Source: a virus
Taxonomy: Duplodnaviria > Heunggongvirae > Uroviricota > Caudoviricetes
Virus record (IMG/VR): IMGVR_UViG_2909246061_000004
Length of the DNA: 25,849 bases
Direction: 5' to 3' (one strand)
The notes under the pieces are model-generated. The model searched no databases and had not been told where the DNA came from. It saw nothing but the letters and a program-made list of their open reading frames with translations. Shown here one piece after another: positions 641-24,565 of the stretch. Every line of letters begins with the position of its first letter. Position 1 is the first letter of the stretch. A program made the translations under genes and the position numbers.

Positions 641-696
641 AAACGGCGGCAGAGCAGTCACGGAGTAAAACTGATACCGCCAAACGTCACCAGAAA
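641..696 (-). ncRNA. dicF: DicF small regulatory RNA with 3' terminator U-tract
   Basis: Reverse complement of 645..696 reads TTTCTGGTGACGTTTGGCGGTATCAGTTTTACTCCGTGACTGCTCTGCCGCC, matching remembered DicF, followed by TTTTTAAAG on the minus strand. Confidence 0.8.
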
Positions 697-4766: not shown

Positions 4767-6050
4767 CGAGATTAAAGTGCATTAGTTCAGATGCAAATTG
4801 ACATTTTGTGGCACAGGGTAGAGCTAGCGTGGTTGTCCGCTTTGTGCCAACAGCGGACATTATGGAAGGTCAGAGTTAAAGATTAAAATGGGATGCTGTG
4901 TGTTTTCTCCAGGTTTTGCTCTATACCTTTCGGGATACTCCACCGACAGAATACGAAAATCAACATTATCAACGGCTCGAAGTGTCTAGATTATCCATGG
5001 CAATTCATGGGAAATCCCATCCAACGGCTTATGCTTCATGTTGCTTTTTGAGATCGCTTCTAGCATAGCTCCACTCAATAATGTTGTCGGGTCGTTGCTG
5101 ATCGAAAAGGATACGGGATTCAATACCATTACCTAAAAAGCTGGTATTCCCATCTACGTAAGAAGCTATCCCTTGTGAACCAACACGAAGAATATTTTCT
5201 AATGGCTGTTTTGTTCTTGCTGCATCGCTAAGGAGATATAAACCCGGGTACGTTTTGTTAGCACGGTGAAAAAAAAGTTCATTGTCAAAACACATGACGA
5301 TGATTATTTGTCCCGACATGAGATCGGAGAGCATTTCAGTTGGCAGATGCAAACTCATAAATGGTCGAGACAAAGGGTCAAAGAATGAATCATTTATATT
5401 CACAACAGGGCTTTTTATACCGAGACTATCCATCCATCCATTGAAGGCAACAAAGCCCATTTCAGAATCACGGTACATACCTAAGAACAAACATTCATCA
5501 ATAGTATCAATTGCCCAATTTTTTCCTCCGCGAATAATCTCCCACATTTTAACTAAGCGGTGGGTATAAAATTCAGACGGATGATCTATCTCATTGATTT
5601 TAACTTTAGACTGATGAAAGTTGTCAAAGCCCTCGCCAGTATTAATCGCCTCCAGAACATTCATGCCACGAATGATTTGCCTTTTTATGCGATTAAATTG
5701 CTTAACATCATTATCAGGCATATTGTTAATGAAGTTTTCTTCAAAGTGCGGACATTCTGAGATAACAGAAAATTCAGCAGCTTCATAAAGCTCATTATTC
5801 TTTTCACCTGTTTTAACTTCCACGAGCTGGAAGCCATCCAGTAGATTAAAGGTGACTAAATCTCCCACATGAACAAATGTGCTCATGTCAGAGACAATCG
5901 CTACGGAGTGTTTGTCCTGGTTGATAAGATCGGCTGCGACCATAGAATCAATTATGTTATCTTCTGATAGATTGTCATTGCTTGCATTAATAGGTAAACG
6001 CCGCAAACTAGAGTGTTCTTCATCAAGAATGCTCCAAATTATTGAGTCAA

Positions 6051-6059
6051 TACAACGGC
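6051..6059. repeat. IS1 target-site duplication, left copy (TACAACGGC)
   Basis: Identical 9-mer at 6828..6836 directly flanking the other IS1 end. Confidence 0.85.
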
Positions 6060-6074
6060 GGTAATGACTCCAAC

Positions 6075-6578
6075 TTATTGATAGTGTTTTATGTTCAGAT
6101 AATGCCCGATGACTTTGTCATGCAGCTCCACCGATTTTGAGAACGACAGCGACTTCCGTCCCAGCCGTGCCAGGTGCTGCCTCAGATTCAGGTTATGCCG
6201 CTCAATTCGCTGCGTATATCGCTTGCTGATTACGTGCAGCTTTCCCTTCAGGCGGGATTCATACAGCGGCCAGCCATCCGTCATCCATATCACCACGTCA
6301 AAGGGTGACAGCAGGCTCATAAGACGCCCCAGCGTCGCCATAGTGCGTTCACCGAATACGTGCGCAACAACCGTCTTCCGGAGCCTGTCATACGCGTAAA
6401 ACAGCCAGCGCTGGCGCGATTTAGCCCCGACATAGCCCCACTGTTCGTCCATTTCCGCGCAGACGATGACGTCACTGCCCGGCTGTATGCGCGAGGTTAC
6501 CGACTGCGGCCTGAGTTTTTTAAATGGCGGAAAATCGTGTTGAGGCCAACGCCCATAATGCGGGCGGTTGCCCGGCAT
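6075..6578 (-). CDS. insB: IS1 InsB (transposase C-terminal frame)
   Basis: 167-aa ORF matching remembered IS1 InsB. Confidence 0.9.
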
Positions 6579-6772
6579 CCAACGCCATTCATGGCCATAT
6601 CAATGATTTTCTGGTGCGTACCGGGTTGAGAAGCGGTGTAAGTGAACTGCAGTTGCCATGTTTTACGGCAGTGAGAGCAGAGATAGCGCTGATGTCCGGC
6701 AGTGCTTTTGCCGTTACGCACCACCCCGTCAGTAGCTGAACAGGAGGGACAGCTGATAGAAACAGAAGCCAC
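6497..6772 (-). CDS. insA: IS1 InsA
   Basis: 91-aa [43 protein letters not shown]... matching remembered IS1 InsA. Confidence 0.9.
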
Positions 6773-6827
6773 TGGAGCACCTCAAAAACACCATCATACA
6801 CTAAATCAGTAAGTTGGCAGCATCACC

Positions 6828-6836
6828 TACAACGGC
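6828..6836. repeat. IS1 target-site duplication, right copy (TACAACGGC)
   Basis: Identical to 6051..6059. Confidence 0.85.
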
Positions 6837-7286
6837 GAAGAATAAGAATTTCAAATTTTTTTAAACTTATTTCATCAATACACTTTTCTTTATTTTCTTT
6901 ATCCTTGTTTCGATGGTGCTCTTTTTTTTCAGTTTTCAATCTTTTTATATCTCTCAGCCGAATAATAATCTCAAAAGATATGATTTTTTGTGAGTCTTTC
7001 CAATTTTTGAGACAGGTTTCATACTCTGCAAGAAAATCCTCATCATTGGAAGGTAGTTCTTGAATTGGATTCCCTCCCCTTATCATTTTGGCAAGTGCAT
7101 GCATTAAAGATACATAATGAGGTGATAAAATTGTCCAAAACTTCCTAAACGGTTTGTACTTTTCAAGAAAAGTTGACTCATCAGTATAATTCATCATAAC
7201 CAAACCTCATTCCTCTTATCTATTTTCCTCAAGGTATAAAATACCAGCCTTTTTTACATAATTATAGTTATAATATGAAGTCTCAT

Positions 7287-8156
7287 TCAGATATCTTCAT
7301 ACTGTACGTAAGAAATATTTGAGCCTCTGATACCATAATCTTCTAAACTGCCTGATTTTTTCTCACCTCTATATAAAGCAACTATCCATCGAGCATTTTC
7401 TTGGATGCTTTTATTTATTTCAGTAAAGTATTCACCGTCAACTTCGGCGAGCGAGTGGCCTAAAACGATGACCTCGTCCACATTTTTAAGCGATGAGAAA
7501 AAAACGTTTTCTTCTTTAATTATGTCTTCGCTGGGCTTGAATGTATTACCGAAGTATTCGTTTATTCTGTCGTATGCCTCTGCTATTCTTGTATCTTGAT
7601 CCGGTCCTATATATGGATTTAGTGACTTTTCCACCCTAAAACTATGACCAAGTATGAGATCGTCATCGTAACTACAATTGCCGTGAATATGTATGATTTG
7701 CTCGTCTGGAACGGCATAGATCTGCTGCAAGGTATTTGTATAATTAAATGAAAAATAGATGCTTTCTCTTGGTATGGGCGGGATGTATTGCTTAGGATTG
7801 TAAGCATCGGCTATGTTAATCCCTTTAACCCAATCAGCGAATTGCTCCTTCAAACGAGCTGACAGCATTTGTGTGATTTTATTTACTTCATATTGGTAAT
7901 CGTGATGATAAGCATCGCTCCAATCATCGGTATTGTATGAAGCCAAAAATATCTCACTGTTTTGAAGGATAAGCTCATAATCAATTTCACCTAAAGCATT
8001 TTCTAACTCATTCCACTCGTCCCCAGCAGGAATGTATTCTTCTATCGCGTCATATAGATCTTGGTCATTTTTTTCTACATACGACTTAAAGTGCTTGTAT
8101 CCTGTTGGTAAGCCATGACGCATGTCAAATCCATTTCCTATTATGTAAAGCCTCAT
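7287..8156 (-). CDS. AbiH-like abortive-infection protein (290 aa)
   Basis: Start at the ATG at 8156 with AAGGGA RBS 8 nt upstream; N-terminus MRLYIIGNGFDMRHGLPTGY carries the IGNGFD-x-HGL motif remembered for the AbiH family; AT-rich gene inside a prophage. Confidence 0.5.
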   Translation of the reverse strand: MRLYIIGNGFDMRHGLPTGYKHFKSYVEKNDQDLYDAIEEYIPAGDEWNELENALGEIDYELILQNSEIFLASYNTDDWSDAYHHDYQYEVNKITQMLSARLKEQFADWVKGINIADAYNPKQYIPPIPRESIYFSFNYTNTLQQIYAVPDEQIIHIHGNCSYDDDLILGHSFRVEKSLNPYIGPDQDTRIAEAYDRINEYFGNTFKPSEDIIKEENVFFSSLKNVDEVIVLGHSLAEVDGEYFTEINKSIQENARWIVALYRGEKKSGSLEDYGIRGSNISYVQYEDI

Positions 8157-8470
8157 TGTTTTTCCCTTAGTCGAATTGTATAAAAATACTAACATGGCCT
8201 GCTCCACGTTGACTACTATCCCCTCCTTTGAGTAATGCCTTCATCAGATGTAACAACATTTGCGAGCTTCCACAGTTCGCTCAAAGCGGACTAGAAGGTT
8301 AGCTTGCGTCGGACTTGGCGTATTTAAAGAAGTGCTGGTGGAGACTGGTTGTTGTGTTCCATTTCTACAGAACAAAATCACAGAAACTATACCCAATAGT
8401 TATATTGAATCAATGATGAGACAGCCTCATATTTATCAGGACTGGTGTACGTCCAATACAGGAGGTTGTC

Positions 8471-8560: not shown

Positions 8561-8771
8561 TTTTATATTGGCGAGGTGACGTGAGTTAAGTAGAATTGCT
8601 GCGGGTGCTTGAGGCTATCTGCCTCAGGCATGAACACCAAAGGCAGATAGAGAAAAGCCCCAGTTAACATTACGCGTCCTGCAAGACGCTTAACATTAAT
8701 CTGAGGCCAATTTCATGCTAGACACATGTAGGTTAGCCTCTTACGTGCCGAAAGGCAAGGAGAAGCAGGCT

Positions 8772-8927
8772 ATGAAGCAGCAAAAGGCGATGTTAATCGC
8801 CCTGATCGTCATCTGTTTAACCGTCATAGTGACGGCACTGGTAACGAGGAAAGACCTCTGCGAGGTACGAATCCGAACCGGCCAGACGGAGGTCGCTGTC
8901 TTCACAGCTTACGAACCTGAGGAGTAA
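8772..8927 (+). CDS. hokD: Hok-family type I toxin (51 aa), HokD/RelF-like
   Basis: MKQQKAMLIALIVICLTVIVTALVTRKDLCEVRIRTGQTEVAVFTAYEPEE matches remembered HokD; AAGGAG RBS; structured leader upstream and terminator downstream. Confidence 0.85.
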   Translation: MKQQKAMLIALIVICLTVIVTALVTRKDLCEVRIRTGQTEVAVFTAYEPEE

Positions 8928-12942: not shown

Positions 12943-13348
12943 CTGTATGCGATATCATCTGAAAGTGATGAGTTCCTGTATGCAGGATATTTACAATCGT
13001 AAAAACTACGCTATGATGCTCATAGTGTCAGTTTTTATAAAAATCCTGTTCACGCTAAAGAAAACATTGAGATGCAATTTAATGTTGGTAAACATACCAG
13101 CCCCAAAAGATTTTATTCAATCTGTTTTTATATGAAGATATTTCAAGTGAATATAAAGAGCATATAATATTATTATTGCACGCAGCTATTATAATATAAC
13201 AGATTAGTTTAATGATTTGTTTTTTGTGAGTTAAACACATGGTTTTATAGTTGTGATGCAATGAGATTTTCCTTATTGTTGAACTGGCGAATATTGATTT
13301 TCCACCTATACTTACCTGGTGTAACCCCAATGATATCAGGTGGATAAT

Positions 13349-14062
13349 ATGTCATACATATGTTCTATCATTTTGGTGTTGAACTCGTTTGGTGTCCGAA
13401 TTGGTAAAGAAGATATTTTGTTTAAAAAAGGAAATGCTGTCCTCATTGAATACAATTTAAAAGATCTTTTTTCGTCAAATACAGATCATCTAATGATCGT
13501 AGATGTTGAGGAGAAAACAGTTAATGATTTCTTTAAAAACTACACACTCTCACCTTTTTCTGTAAGAAGGTTTTATCCGTCATACTTGATAGTAGAATGT
13601 GAAGATTTTTCATTGTTAAAGAACTTGGTTGCATGCTTGAATTGTGATAGCAAAACCGTGGATGTAGTTAGAAATCAAATATCACTTGCATGTCTTGCTG
13701 TCTTATCTTCAGAGAAAATAGTGCAAAGTTTTTTGTTCGGAAGTCTTAATAGCTTAGGTTGTAAAGTTAAGGCTATTATTCACTCGGATATCTCAGCGTC
13801 ATGGAGACTTTGTGATATATCTTCAAGATTATATATGAGCGAGAGTTTGTTAAAAAGAAAATTAAAAGACGAAGGATTATCGTTTAGTAAATTAATTCTT
13901 GAAGAACGAATGATGATGGCGCAAAGATTATTGATCTACAGTAACCATACTGTCGGCAAGGTGGCGGGAATATGCGGGTATGACAATGCATCATATTTTG
14001 TAAGTGTTTTTAGAGGATATTTTGGTGTGCCTCCGCACCAATATTTATCAAGATTTTCTTAG
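13349..14062 (+). CDS. AraC/XylS-family transcriptional regulator, AppY/GadX/Rns-like
   Basis: ATG at 13349 with AGGTGG RBS; N-terminus MSYICSIILV resembles AppY; C-terminal double-HTH region (KVAGICGYDNASYFVSVFRGYFGVPPHQY); very AT-rich upstream region and AT-rich coding sequence. Confidence 0.7.
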   Translation: MSYICSIILVLNSFGVRIGKEDILFKKGNAVLIEYNLKDLFSSNTDHLMIVDVEEKTVNDFFKNYTLSPFSVRRFYPSYLIVECEDFSLLKNLVACLNCDSKTVDVVRNQISLACLAVLSSEKIVQSFLFGSLNSLGCKVKAIIHSDISASWRLCDISSRLYMSESLLKRKLKDEGLSFSKLILEERMMMAQRLLIYSNHTVGKVAGICGYDNASYFVSVFRGYFGVPPHQYLSRFS

Positions 14063-15808: not shown

Positions 15809-16171
15809 GGTAATATTAAATCGGAACATTTACATCGCGGAATGTAAAATTTAAATAAAAAGGACTCTTCCATGAGCCAAAATTCCTGAAATCTTAAGGG
15901 TAAGATAAAAGGTCTTAATCAGAATGACACGTTATTATTAATAAATAAAGCTATTCTTTCATTGCTGTGTTTTTCTTTACAAAAGTAATCCTTGCTATGG
16001 GTGGTTAATCATGCGTTAATGGTGTTCTGGTTTGTTACAAATTTATCTGAAGCAGTCATTGTTATAATTTTATTATTTGTACCTCTTGAGATTTCCTTGT
16101 TGGTTTTTCTCTCTGATATTTTTTTTCGGACCATTCTGCCCAAGGGCTAATTTCTTCAAAAGGTAATAATT

Positions 16172-16384
16172 ATGTCTAACAAAATGACTGGTTTAGTGAA
16201 ATGGTTTAACCCTGAAAAAGGTTTTGGTTTCATCACGCCGAAAGATGGCAGCAAAGATGTGTTTGTCCATTTCTCAGCAATTCAGAGCAACGATTTCAAA
16301 ACATTAACTGAGAATCAGGAAGTTGAATTTGGTATTGAGAACGGACCTAAAGGTCCTGCCGCTGTTCATGTAGTGGCGCTTTGA
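16172..16384 (+). CDS. cspI: Cold-shock protein CspI
   Basis: [53 protein letters not shown]... matches remembered CspI; long AT-rich 5' leader typical of csp genes. Confidence 0.85.
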
Positions 16385-16591
16385 GGTAGACAATATTACA
16401 AACCATATTCACTTTAGATGCCCGTGTTGTCATGGTTCCCAGTATAGAACATCATCTTTTGATGTTTCTGACATGAATCCTTTCGGGGCAAAATGTATCT
16501 TTTGTAAATCAATGATGATTACATTTGATAATATTTCACAATACTTAAATGCCAGCCGTCTGTCGTTGGATTTAAAAAAGTGAAAATGAAG

Positions 16592-16612
16592 GCTCCTTCG
16601 GGAGCTTTTTTG
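16592..16612 (+). terminator. Rho-independent terminator downstream of cspI
   Basis: GCTCC-TTCG-GGAGC tetraloop hairpin followed by TTTTTT. Confidence 0.5.
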
Positions 16613-16655
16613 CTTGGTATCTATTCGATGGATACTCACATACTACGGTAACATC

Positions 16656-16886
16656 ATGAAAAAAATCATAGTTTTTTTTAACTCTGAACCAGCAGTGGTA
16701 GTGCCAGCGATGACTGGAGTTAACACCATCATGCGTGAATATCCAAATGGCGAAAAAACACACCTTACTGTAATGGCCGCAGGGTTTCCATCTCTGACCG
16801 GAGATCATAAAGTCATTTATGTAGCAGCGGATCGACATGTAACTTCAGAAGAAATTCTGGAAGCAGCAATGAGACTCTTGAATTGA
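16656..16886 (+). CDS. Hypothetical small protein upstream of gnsB
   Basis: Internal ATG (MKKIIVFFNSEP...) of ORF 16614..16886; weak RBS; no family recognised. Confidence 0.35.
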   Translation: MKKIIVFFNSEPAVVVPAMTGVNTIMREYPNGEKTHLTVMAAGFPSLTGDHKVIYVAADRHVTSEEILEAAMRLLN

Positions 16887-17058
16887 TTTGATTCTAATGC
16901 ATTGATAATAAATGATAATCATCTTTATCTGTTTGTGTGAAATTTAGACCGTCGTATGTTGATTATTGCGATGTTTCATCTTATCTTTTATACGTTTGCT
17001 CCATATAATTGACACTACTGTGTACCAGGACAGTCATAACAGACTAAAAGAGGAAATG

Positions 17059-17232
17059 ATGAACATTGAAGAGTTAAAAACAAAAACAGAAGCAGATATT
17101 TCTGAATATATAACAAAAAAAATCATTGAGCTTAAGAAAAAGACCGGGAAAGAAGTTACCAGTATCCAGTTTACTGCACGGGAAAAAATGACTGGTCTTG
17201 AAAGCTATGATATCAAGATTGATTTAATCTAG
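17059..17232 (+). CDS. gnsB: GnsB (GnsA/GnsB family, 57 aa)
   Basis: MNIEELKTKTEADISEYITKKIIELKKKTGKEVTSIQFTAREKMTGLESYDIKIDLI matches remembered GnsB; AGAGGA RBS. Confidence 0.8.
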   Translation: MNIEELKTKTEADISEYITKKIIELKKKTGKEVTSIQFTAREKMTGLESYDIKIDLI

Positions 17233-17527
17233 CATGTTTATAGTATTAGCATCAATTTCTCATCAGATGCTATTCAACAATACAAATTACCCATAAACCT
17301 CGTTTTTACGGGGTTTTGTTATATTTAAACATTACCGAATAGATATAAATCTCGATTGTCGATGGTATTGGTTATGTGACAATACCTAGTCTTTCCGGTA
17401 TGCCTGAAGAGAATACAAACGACAGATTATGTAAGGGAAACGCGCTGAAACTTTCACTCTTTCATGCTGAGTGATTTGACGTTATATTTTTAGCCGCAAG
17501 TGAAGAGCAAACGAATGGAGCGACAAA

Positions 17528-21966: not shown

Positions 21967-22541
21967 TGGCATTCAGAATGAGTGAACAACCACAGACCAT
22001 AAAAATTTATAATCTGCTGGCCGGAACTAATGAATTTATTGGTGAAGGTGACGCATATATTCCGCCTCATACAGGTCTGCCAGCAAACAGTACCGATATT
22101 GCACCGCCAGATATTCCGGCAGGCTTCGTGGCTGTTTTCAACAGTGATGAGGCATCGTGGCATCTCGTTGAAGATCATCGGGGAAAAACCGTCTATGACG
22201 TGGCTTCCGGCGACGCGTTATTTATTTCTGAACTCGGTCCGTTACCGGAAAATGTTACCTGGTTATCGCCGGAAGGGGAGTTTCAGAAGTGGAACGGCAC
22301 AGCCTGGGTGAAGGATACGGAAGCAGAAAAACTGTTCCGGATCCGGGAGGCGGAAGAAACAAAAAACAACCTGATGCAGGTAGCCAGTGAGCATATTGCG
22401 CCGCTTCAGGATGCTGCAGATCTGGAAATTGCAACGGAGGAAGAAATCTCGTTGCTGGAAGCATGGAAAAAGTATCGGGTATTGCTGAACCGTGTTGATA
22501 CGTCAACTGCACAGGATATTGAATGGCCAGCACTGCCGTAG
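21966..22541 (+). CDS. Tail-fibre assembly protein Tfa
   Basis: [43 protein letters not shown]... typical Tfa; its start overlaps the tail-fibre stop by 1 nt. Confidence 0.8.
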
Positions 22542-23229: not shown

Positions 23230-23546
23230 AGTGAGACTCTATTCGAAATTGGTGTTCATATCATAATGCATCTCAGAAAATAATTATGATTATTTTTGTG
23301 CATATTTGTATGTACACGTTCGAAAATAAACGAATGCGTATGCAACCCCGTAATTTTTGGTGAGACCCAAAATCGATTTTGTGAAAAATGGCTTTAACTC
23401 GGTTTGTTTTTCGAGTTCCGGGCGGGCTCAAGGAAGAAGAATAGTGTTGCGTGTTATTTTAACCAGATTTCAAGTTGTTTGGACGTGGAAAAGTGGAGCA
23501 AAATGTTGTTAAAGTGGAAAAATGATAAAAAAGTAAGTTTATTATA

Positions 23547-23813
23547 TTACATTTTACCATTTAAATTTTGGTTGTCTTTAAGAACTGATATCGCTGTTTG
23601 TAATAATTCTTTGTTATCCAGCCATGATTTTTTCTTTATGTTTCCTTCAATGTAATCAAGCAATGTTCTGGTATTAATAGGTCTTCCCTGTTTTGCTACT
23701 TCCACTACAGCATCCCCTAGGATAATTCTTACTTCAGGAAGCTGCGCAGGGAACCACTTTAGGGTGTCTTTTGATTTCATGAAGATATTCCTTAAAATAT
23801 TATTGATTTTCAT
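23547..23813 (-). CDS. ydfK: YdfK/YnaE-family cold-shock-induced prophage protein
   Basis: 88-aa ORF starting MKINNILRNIFMKSKDTLKWFPAQLPEV, matching remembered YdfK/YnaE; lies next to pin as in Rac and Qin. Confidence 0.6.
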   Translation of the reverse strand: MKINNILRNIFMKSKDTLKWFPAQLPEVRIILGDAVVEVAKQGRPINTRTLLDYIEGNIKKKSWLDNKELLQTAISVLKDNQNLNGKM

Positions 23814-24565
23814 TGCGATATTGTATGTCTGATTCAGGATATGTTGACTTATACATCGGTTTTGTCTGGGTTATTGGATATGCCAATCCCTAATTTTATT
23901 AGGGCATGACTAAAAATGCTGAATATGATAAGGAGAGAAGTGATTATCAGTATGCTGTTCATATAGCCTCGAATTAGTAATGTGTTATATATGATATAGT
24001 TGACAATTTTTATCTTGGGTGTTTTTAAAGTTCGTAGATAAACATTGTCGTTTCAGGTATACAGGAATGCTAGCAGGTGGCAGCAAAAATCAGGCGGTTT
24101 ATGGCGCAAGCTGAAGCGGCAACTGCAAACTATCTTATGCAGAGACTCTACACGGATTGGGTTTAAAAGTATACATAGATAACAGTTTTTATCTGAAAAA
24201 GAAAAATATCAAGGTGATATAGCCTATATGCCTTTGATGCGGAGGAATGACTGTGATGGGAGTGATGTATCTGAATAGTTGAAAAAACGCAGACACGCCT
24301 TATGCAAGAACGTGCTGCGGTTGGCTGGTAAATTTTTCGATAGTGTGAGTATTGAATGATTTCCAGCCGTTCTTGATTTTACGCATAAATCCATGAAAAA
24401 ACTACTTATCTGTTGGGGAGTTTTTTTGGGGCATATATGGGACAGAAATAGGCCCCAGATAGACACTGAGATCGAACTTAGGATGCTTTTTAAAAAATGC
24501 AACTATCTGAAAAAACCTAGAAAACGCCAAGGAAACCACAGGATGGGAAAAAACACCTGTGAATT

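Follow-up and report, generated by a model that had tools for sequence, protein, structure and literature searches.

An apparent AbiH two-gene module in a lambdoid prophage resolves into two known defence genes, abiH and an IS1-interrupted DS-37

AbiH is a classical single-gene defence system. The AbiH family has been placed in a SIR2-like relationship (SIRim clade; PMC13064643; bioRxiv 10.1101/2024.09.18.613514), and no AbiH has a demonstrated mechanism (PMC13064643). A second gene, DS-37, was predicted, cloned and validated in 2026 in the DefensePredictor paper (Science 2026, PMC13092281). Here we analyse a region that carries both, at positions 5029-8156 of the IMG/VR virus record IMGVR_UViG_2909246061_000004, a 25,849-nucleotide stretch of DNA assigned to the Caudoviricetes, which at its full length is called the window. 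A first-pass annotation of the sequence had proposed this region as an undescribed phage-defence module in which AbiH is joined by a conserved partner of about 465 aa. Both genes are indeed phage-defence genes, and what looked like a new system proves to be two known ones side by side: the supposed partner, after repair in silico, is identical to published DS-37 at 462/463 positions. We therefore read the region, with a probability of roughly 0.85, as a defence stack, that is, two independent single-gene systems (AbiH and DS-37) in the cargo slot beside hokD of a Qin-like lambdoid prophage.

What is known about DS-37 comes from the supplements of that paper (PMC13092281). The protein is listed as WP_000982358.1 (463 aa, working id SC24; Table S8, 'hit_proteins'), and Table S6 enters DS-37 as a unit of one coding sequence (CDS) at NZ_QOXM01000003.1 26984-28375, in the category 'Predicted novel defense gene' and flagged 'defensive TRUE'; the system table adds 'replicated TRUE'. 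Its DefensePredictor log-odds are 6.43, and its HHblits log-odds of -2.24 denote no remote homology to known defence proteins. In Escherichia coli MG1655 carrying pCV1-SC24, the assay host given in the strain list, DS-37 alone protects against Bas69 and SECphi27, with -log(EOP) values of 4.32 and 1.94, respectively (EOP, efficiency of plating; Table S7). The hit-protein table of the same paper nowhere contains the N-terminal motif of AbiH, and therefore this phenotype was obtained without AbiH. On mechanism, the paper goes no further than a low-probability label: the domain sheet marks DS-37 as PDDEXK because HHpred aligned residues 154-204 with NERD (PF08378) at a probability of 0.47 (PMC13092281).

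Two known genes in tandem

The two genes are co-oriented open reading frames (ORFs) on the minus strand of the window, the downstream one interrupted by an insertion sequence (IS):

7287-8156, minus strand: abiH, AbiH family; 289 aa from the ATG at 8156; appears intact
7198-7286, minus strand: abiH-DS-37 intergenic spacer; 89 bp, from the abiH stop codon to the DS-37 start codon
6828-7197, minus strand: DS-37 5′ fragment; codons 1-123 plus one base; ORF 6823-7203
6060-6827, minus strand: IS1 (IS1B-type), 768 bp, with insA/insB; disrupts DS-37 at codon 124
6828-6836 and 6051-6059, minus strand: 9-bp target-site duplication GCCGTTGTA; direct repeats flanking IS1
5029-6050, minus strand: DS-37 3′ fragment; rest of codon 124 to the stop; ORF 5029-6006

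The product of the upstream gene begins MRLYIIGNGFDMRHGL at 8156, although longer starts are possible at 8195 (chosen by PGAP, giving a 302-aa form) and at 8207. Its recognition as AbiH from this N-terminal motif was borne out by profile search. The protein matched Pfam PF14253 with E=6.6e-69 and 233.3 bits (cut-off 30.9) over profile positions 1-258 of 260, and the PADLOC AbiH profile with 1.3e-27; it also matched, end to end, phrog_19951, a PHROG of unknown function (5.5e-181). RefSeq names the product AbiH family protein.

The DS-37 gene runs from the ATG at 7197 to the stop at 5029-5031. Removal of IS1 and one repeat copy in silico restored a single frame of 463 codons (465 when counted from a TTG), in which the 3′ fragment is in frame with the 5′ fragment; the repeat copy at 6828-6836 makes up the last 9 bp of the latter. 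The inserted element was confirmed by Pfam matches to DDE_Tnp_IS1 (2.3e-78), HTH_Tnp_IS1 (1.7e-30) and Zn_ribbon_InsA (3e-21). Residues 1-123 are 100% identical to those of the intact gene of strain ECCWS199, and the repaired protein differs from WP_000982358.1 solely by K88E. Translation of the gene in strain FUJ80154 showed that WP_000982358.1 is encoded within the same cassette, beside abiH and hokD.

That the downstream gene has no recognisable family, as the first-pass annotation stated, agrees with our searches: the repaired 463-aa protein had no match in Pfam, NCBIfam, PADLOC v2 or PHROGs, which is why DS-37 looked unknown. In the literature, neither the RefSeq accession nor peptide strings of the protein were matched in main texts; the one match lay in the DefensePredictor supplements. 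The module is thus not undescribed, both of its genes having been reported before. What the window holds is nevertheless a disrupted allele with no uninterrupted DS-37 ORF. The 5′ fragment encodes most of an N-terminal helical hairpin, and the 3′ fragment a conserved α/β region with a putative nuclease motif; split in this way, DS-37 is presumably inactive in the window strain.

Natural AbiH-only versions of the locus

We compared the cassette with loci that carry close relatives of its AbiH. The AbiH family comprises more than 1,371 clusters at E<=1e-20, compared with 48 close DS-37 clusters. Proteins 91-92% identical to the window AbiH occur in Providencia, Morganella and Dickeya, and the Morganellaceae AbiH (91%) stands alone, without DS-37, in at least two different islands (loci L056-L060). 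There, homology to the cassette extends from about 135 bp upstream of the ATG to 27 bp past the stop. In a further locus, L047, whose AbiH is 88.6% identical, homology breaks off 10 bp past the abiH stop and picks up again at a hairpin that lies about 130 bp beyond the stop of DS-37:

4835-4858, minus strand: hairpin GTCCGCTGTTGGCACAAAGCGGAC, downstream of DS-37; common to AbiH-only loci

Aligned with window 4835-7286, the stretch L047:4841-5000 has about 36 unrelated bases in place of the whole DS-37 module and keeps both flanks of the cassette. This makes DS-37 an insertion/deletion unit within an AbiH locus. Comparison of the junctions of the cassette with L047 and L051 sets the right-hand boundary of this unit at GTCCGCTGTTGGCACAAAGCGGAC, and the module junction showed neither repeats nor target duplications. 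By the same comparison, the first ~10 bp of the spacer belong to the abiH module and the remainder to the DS-37 module.

Co-orientation, the 89-bp gap and the lack of a terminator between the genes, which the first-pass annotation had pointed out, hold in the ORFs and the spacer: a consensus terminator scan found no terminator-like site in the 89 bp, and the sole promoter-like match within them overlaps the DS-37 start codon. The hairpin GTCCGCTGTTGGCACAAAGCGGAC was not called by that scan because no T-run follows it. With its module placed after the abiH stop and before a hairpin that AbiH-only loci also carry, DS-37 may be co-transcribed with abiH. One locus thus occurs in nature both with AbiH alone and with AbiH plus DS-37, and distribution by itself, through solitary homologues of 91-92% identity and the AbiH-only version of the locus, marks AbiH as a single-gene system. 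The proposal of a new two-gene AbiH system fails on these close homologues without DS-37 (L056-L060 and L047).

DS-37 relatives beyond the AbiH locus

A word-indexed search gave 48 close DS-37 clusters, all from Enterobacterales or Aeromonas. We inspected the contexts of these and of relatives on viral contigs; identities are given relative to the window protein:

85-100%, E. coli and Klebsiella lambdoid prophages: AbiH upstream, always with an 89-bp gap
61%, closest outgroup: alone on a small Mob plasmid
52-56%, Pantoea (plasmid-like contigs): 16-18 bp downstream of an Abi_2 protein, PADLOC PD-T4-5 (1e-31)
49%, Aeromonas: alone, between Gabija (GajA/GajB) and an Argonaute-associated nuclease
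48%, Dickeya: 17 bp downstream of a DUF3644 protein, PADLOC PDC-S19 (8e-71)
47%, Morganella: after two unknown genes
26-49%, about 15 other DS-37-family loci: solitary, in variable slots

The pairing with AbiH is limited to one clade, in which DS-37 is at least 85% identical and which lives in lambdoid prophages of E. coli and Klebsiella; between these two hosts the proteins of the pair are 85-90% identical. Among the relatives below 85% identity, none adjoins AbiH in about 20 distinct contexts examined. The partnership had been staked on homologues of the 463-aa protein standing beside AbiH-like genes: within the >=85% clade they do, and everywhere outside it they do not. As a conserved AbiH partner, then, the protein does not hold up. 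A scan of GTDB representative genomes returned one DS-37 locus, in Pseudomonas bubulae, and therefore yields no co-occurrence statistics.

Solitary relatives occupy diverse positions. P2-like prophages carry them in the interval between gpU and the fibre genes, in that between gpV and gpS, or immediately behind the integrase; others adjoin the integrase and primase of a satellite-like element, sit in a Mu-like prophage, or lie within a siphovirus tail module between chaperone and tape-measure genes, and that of P. bubulae adjoins purC. A frameshift or stop divides one DS-37-family gene in a P2-like prophage (gpV-gpS; L085:3872-5448) into two ORFs, a further case of decay. An exhaustive hidden Markov model search of 50%-identity representatives returned 686 clusters at E<=1e-3 and 180 at E<=1e-30, with members mostly 430-500 aa long and matched over nearly their full length. 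The DS-37 family thus far exceeds the close enterobacterial clade and behaves as solitary cargo of prophages, a satellite-like element and plasmids.

Co-oriented DS-37 homologues directly behind PD-T4-5/Abi_2 (Pantoea) or PDC-S19/DUF3644 (Dickeya) are found at L003:4918-7395, L062:3920-6386 and L012:3685-6458. The placement of DS-37 behind PD-T4-5, PDC-S19 and AbiH could reflect either a recurrent docking arrangement or the plain stacking of defence islands. In Klebsiella (L051:2503-3864), a dGTPase defence gene (PADLOC 2.6e-142) is found on the opposite strand, about 1.1 kb away from the AbiH-DS-37 pair, so that slot holds at least three defence genes.

Cargo slot and decay of the cassette

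The cassette is placed between replication genes (replisome organiser, DUF977) and a conserved landmark of the slot:

8603-8927, plus strand: hokD/sok type I toxin-antitoxin locus; sok Rfam RF01794, 119.9 bits; hokD CDS in RefSeq

E. coli strain E308 is 100% identical over the queried 3.9 kb and carries the cassette in a Qin-like lambdoid prophage, where RefSeq annotates an IS1B family transposase and renders the split DS-37 as two hypothetical proteins. In K-12 MG1655, relB-relE of Qin directly adjoin hokD, in the same slot as the cassette, in agreement with the first-pass annotation, which placed relBE there in Qin. The AT-rich block noted at first pass was likewise confirmed: the two genes without IS1 have a GC content of 0.367, against 0.50-0.51 in the flanks and 0.445 in the window.

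At >99% identity the cassette is present in 65/5,426 complete E. coli genomes, mostly uninterrupted, as in ECCWS199, where it spans 2321003-2323392 of NZ_CP032237. Full abiH and full DS-37 are always together in these 65 genomes; all of them carry one cassette at >99% identity, and the co-occurrence is therefore worth no more than one observation.

Damage to the cassette has arisen several times independently. IS1 lies within DS-37 in two genomes, with strain PSS-10 sharing the window allele, and within abiH in at least four, among them FUJ80154 (L093) and its relatives. In F5656C1 (L094), of the enterotoxigenic E. coli type, IS3 truncates abiH at nucleotide 527, and DS-37 is lost together with the replication genes; the 527-nt abiH remnant recurs in other E. 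coli genomes. Overall, 116 genomes retain some trace of abiH, and 51 of these have nothing more than a remnant. In strain LR-27 (L092), IS3 is inserted between abiH and hokD and breaks neither gene. Either a cost of carriage or the ordinary erosion of a cryptic prophage may lie behind this decay; the several independent IS knock-outs and deletions hint at a cost.

Predicted activities of the two proteins

Across 137 full-length DS-37 family members (median 23% identity to the reference), D178, D187, E201, K203, G205, R244 and Q248 are invariant, and N208 is 98% conserved. In the window, these residues map as follows:

5812-5889, minus strand: codons of D178, D187 and E201-x-K203; PD-(D/E)xK-like motif, followed by R244 and Q248
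5677-5679, minus strand: codon of Q248, a family-invariant residue

An AlphaFold model of DS-37 (predicted local distance difference test, pLDDT, 84.7; predicted template-modelling score, pTM, 0.85) has long helices at 52-96 and 100-131, followed by helix-strand-strand-strand-helix elements. In this model, D187 is at the start of strand 188-192 and E201-x-K203 comes directly after strand 196-200, both predicted strands being flanked by helices, as would be expected for a PD-(D/E)xK core. From the D...D...ExK...R...Q motif in the α/β region we infer that DS-37 would act as a PD-(D/E)xK-type nuclease effector, with the N-terminal helical hairpin preceding the α/β region that bears the motif. A family sequence profile found nothing in the PDB, and the predicted fold matched no solved structure; ten distant relatives had no Pfam or PADLOC match. 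The seven invariant residues are obvious targets for mutagenesis. Four distant family members of 669-690 aa (P0283, P0285, P0287 and P0306) have an extra N-terminal extension of about 240 aa, which has no Pfam or PADLOC match.

For AbiH, 30 homologues, down to 42% identity, share an invariant G7-N8-G9-F10-D11 loop, N138 and H158-G159, which may correspond to the catalytic residues of SIR2 proteins. Searched against PDB sequences, the AbiH profile found nothing, and no SIR2 protein. By analogy with other defence SIR2 proteins, AbiH would act as an NADase that depletes NAD+ on infection and aborts it. No plaque or survival assays of an enterobacterial AbiH were found in a literature search, and a domain-centric discovery paper leaves AbiH unmentioned (PMC13069673).

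Alternative readings

An obligate two-gene system, in which the 463-aa protein serves AbiH as dedicated sensor or co-effector, would account for the co-orientation, the 89-bp gap without a predicted terminator, the conservation of the pair at 85-90% protein identity between E. coli and Klebsiella lambdoid prophages, and the fact that 65/65 complete E. coli genomes with one full gene carry the other. We consider it very unlikely, because DS-37 alone is defensive (PMC13092281), AbiH of 91-92% identity occurs alone and an AbiH-only version of the locus exists, while DS-37 relatives below 85% identity have no AbiH beside them in any of the ~20 contexts, and the E. coli co-occurrence reduces to the single cassette described above. 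Neither AbiH nor DS-37 needs the presence of the other, as their solitary distributions and the published single-gene phenotype show. Equally hard to sustain, and in our estimate the least probable of all, is that the 463-aa gene is selfish or non-defensive prophage cargo, such as a mobile nuclease gene, that adjoins AbiH incidentally. Its discrete insertion or deletion at many sites in phages, a satellite-like element and plasmids, its nuclease-like motif, and its frequent inactivation (by IS1 in the window, by a frameshift in L085 and by deletion in further strains) would suit such an element, but published plaque assays record up to ~4 log of protection (PMC13092281), it has known defence genes as neighbours, and repeats or target duplications are lacking at the module junction. 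A selfish homing endonuclease was likewise rejected, given the published phenotype and a junction free of repeats.

A looser link between the two genes deserves somewhat more credit, although it too is improbable. Here both systems would be autonomous, and DS-37 would piggy-back on the transcription unit of another defence gene, providing additive or synergistic cover or a back-up. In three unrelated lineages the DS-37 homologue follows a different single-gene defence gene directly and in the same orientation: AbiH after 89 bp, PD-T4-5 after 16-18 bp and PDC-S19 after 17 bp. In the window cassette, the module is bracketed by the abiH stop and the hairpin that AbiH-only loci have in common, and the spacer has no promoter-like match apart from one that overlaps the DS-37 start codon. 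On such grounds one might tentatively picture DS-37 as a module that repeatedly inserts behind single-gene abortive-infection genes, and the window cassette as a facultative two-layer arrangement, an idea to which we give a small chance. However, there are just three such junctions, most DS-37 family members are solitary and so must have promoters of their own, and the stacking of unrelated systems is normal in defence islands. The evidence does not lead one to predict synergy between AbiH and DS-37, and we prefer the reading of a stack of two independent single-gene systems.

Other features of the prophage

Elsewhere in the window, Rfam matches above the gathering score are the DicF small RNA (644-695, minus strand), sok (8603-8777, plus strand), a cspA-type thermoregulator 5′ untranslated region (16026-16411, plus strand) and IS009 RNA (22309-22507, plus strand). 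Further AT-rich blocks of the prophage (GC 0.30-0.37) lie at 13001-14000, 16001-17500 and 23501-24000; for the one at 13001-14000, the E308 RefSeq annotation shows overlap with the gene of a helix-turn-helix domain protein, which follows the lipocalin and YbgA cargo genes.

Comparison with known systems

The window AbiH resembles that of Lactococcus lactis (Prevots et al. 1996) and PF14253 in its full-length profile match, its single-gene organization, its carriage on a mobile element and, according to the literature, its SIR2-like fold; it differs in being an enterobacterial homologue on a lambdoid prophage. DS-37 agrees with the published gene in a near-identical protein, the same position in the cassette and a function validated for the single gene, whereas IS1 interrupts the window copy at codon 124 and presumably leaves it non-functional. 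In the order of its motif, DS-37 resembles PD-(D/E)xK nucleases such as NERD-domain proteins, having an invariant Asp before one predicted strand, ExK directly after the next and then a helix with invariant R and Q; the HHpred match to NERD reported by the DefensePredictor authors spans residues 154-204 (PMC13092281). As a whole, the locus is comparable to other prophage cargo slots, such as K-12 Qin with relBE and the P2 and P4 hotspots: the hokD slot likewise varies in its toxin or defence cargo from strain to strain, and relatives of DS-37 fill variable slots in P2-like prophages, in a satellite-like element and on plasmids. Unlike those stacks, the slot in the window holds two tandem defence genes, one of which was perhaps inserted into, or deleted from, the transcription unit of the other.

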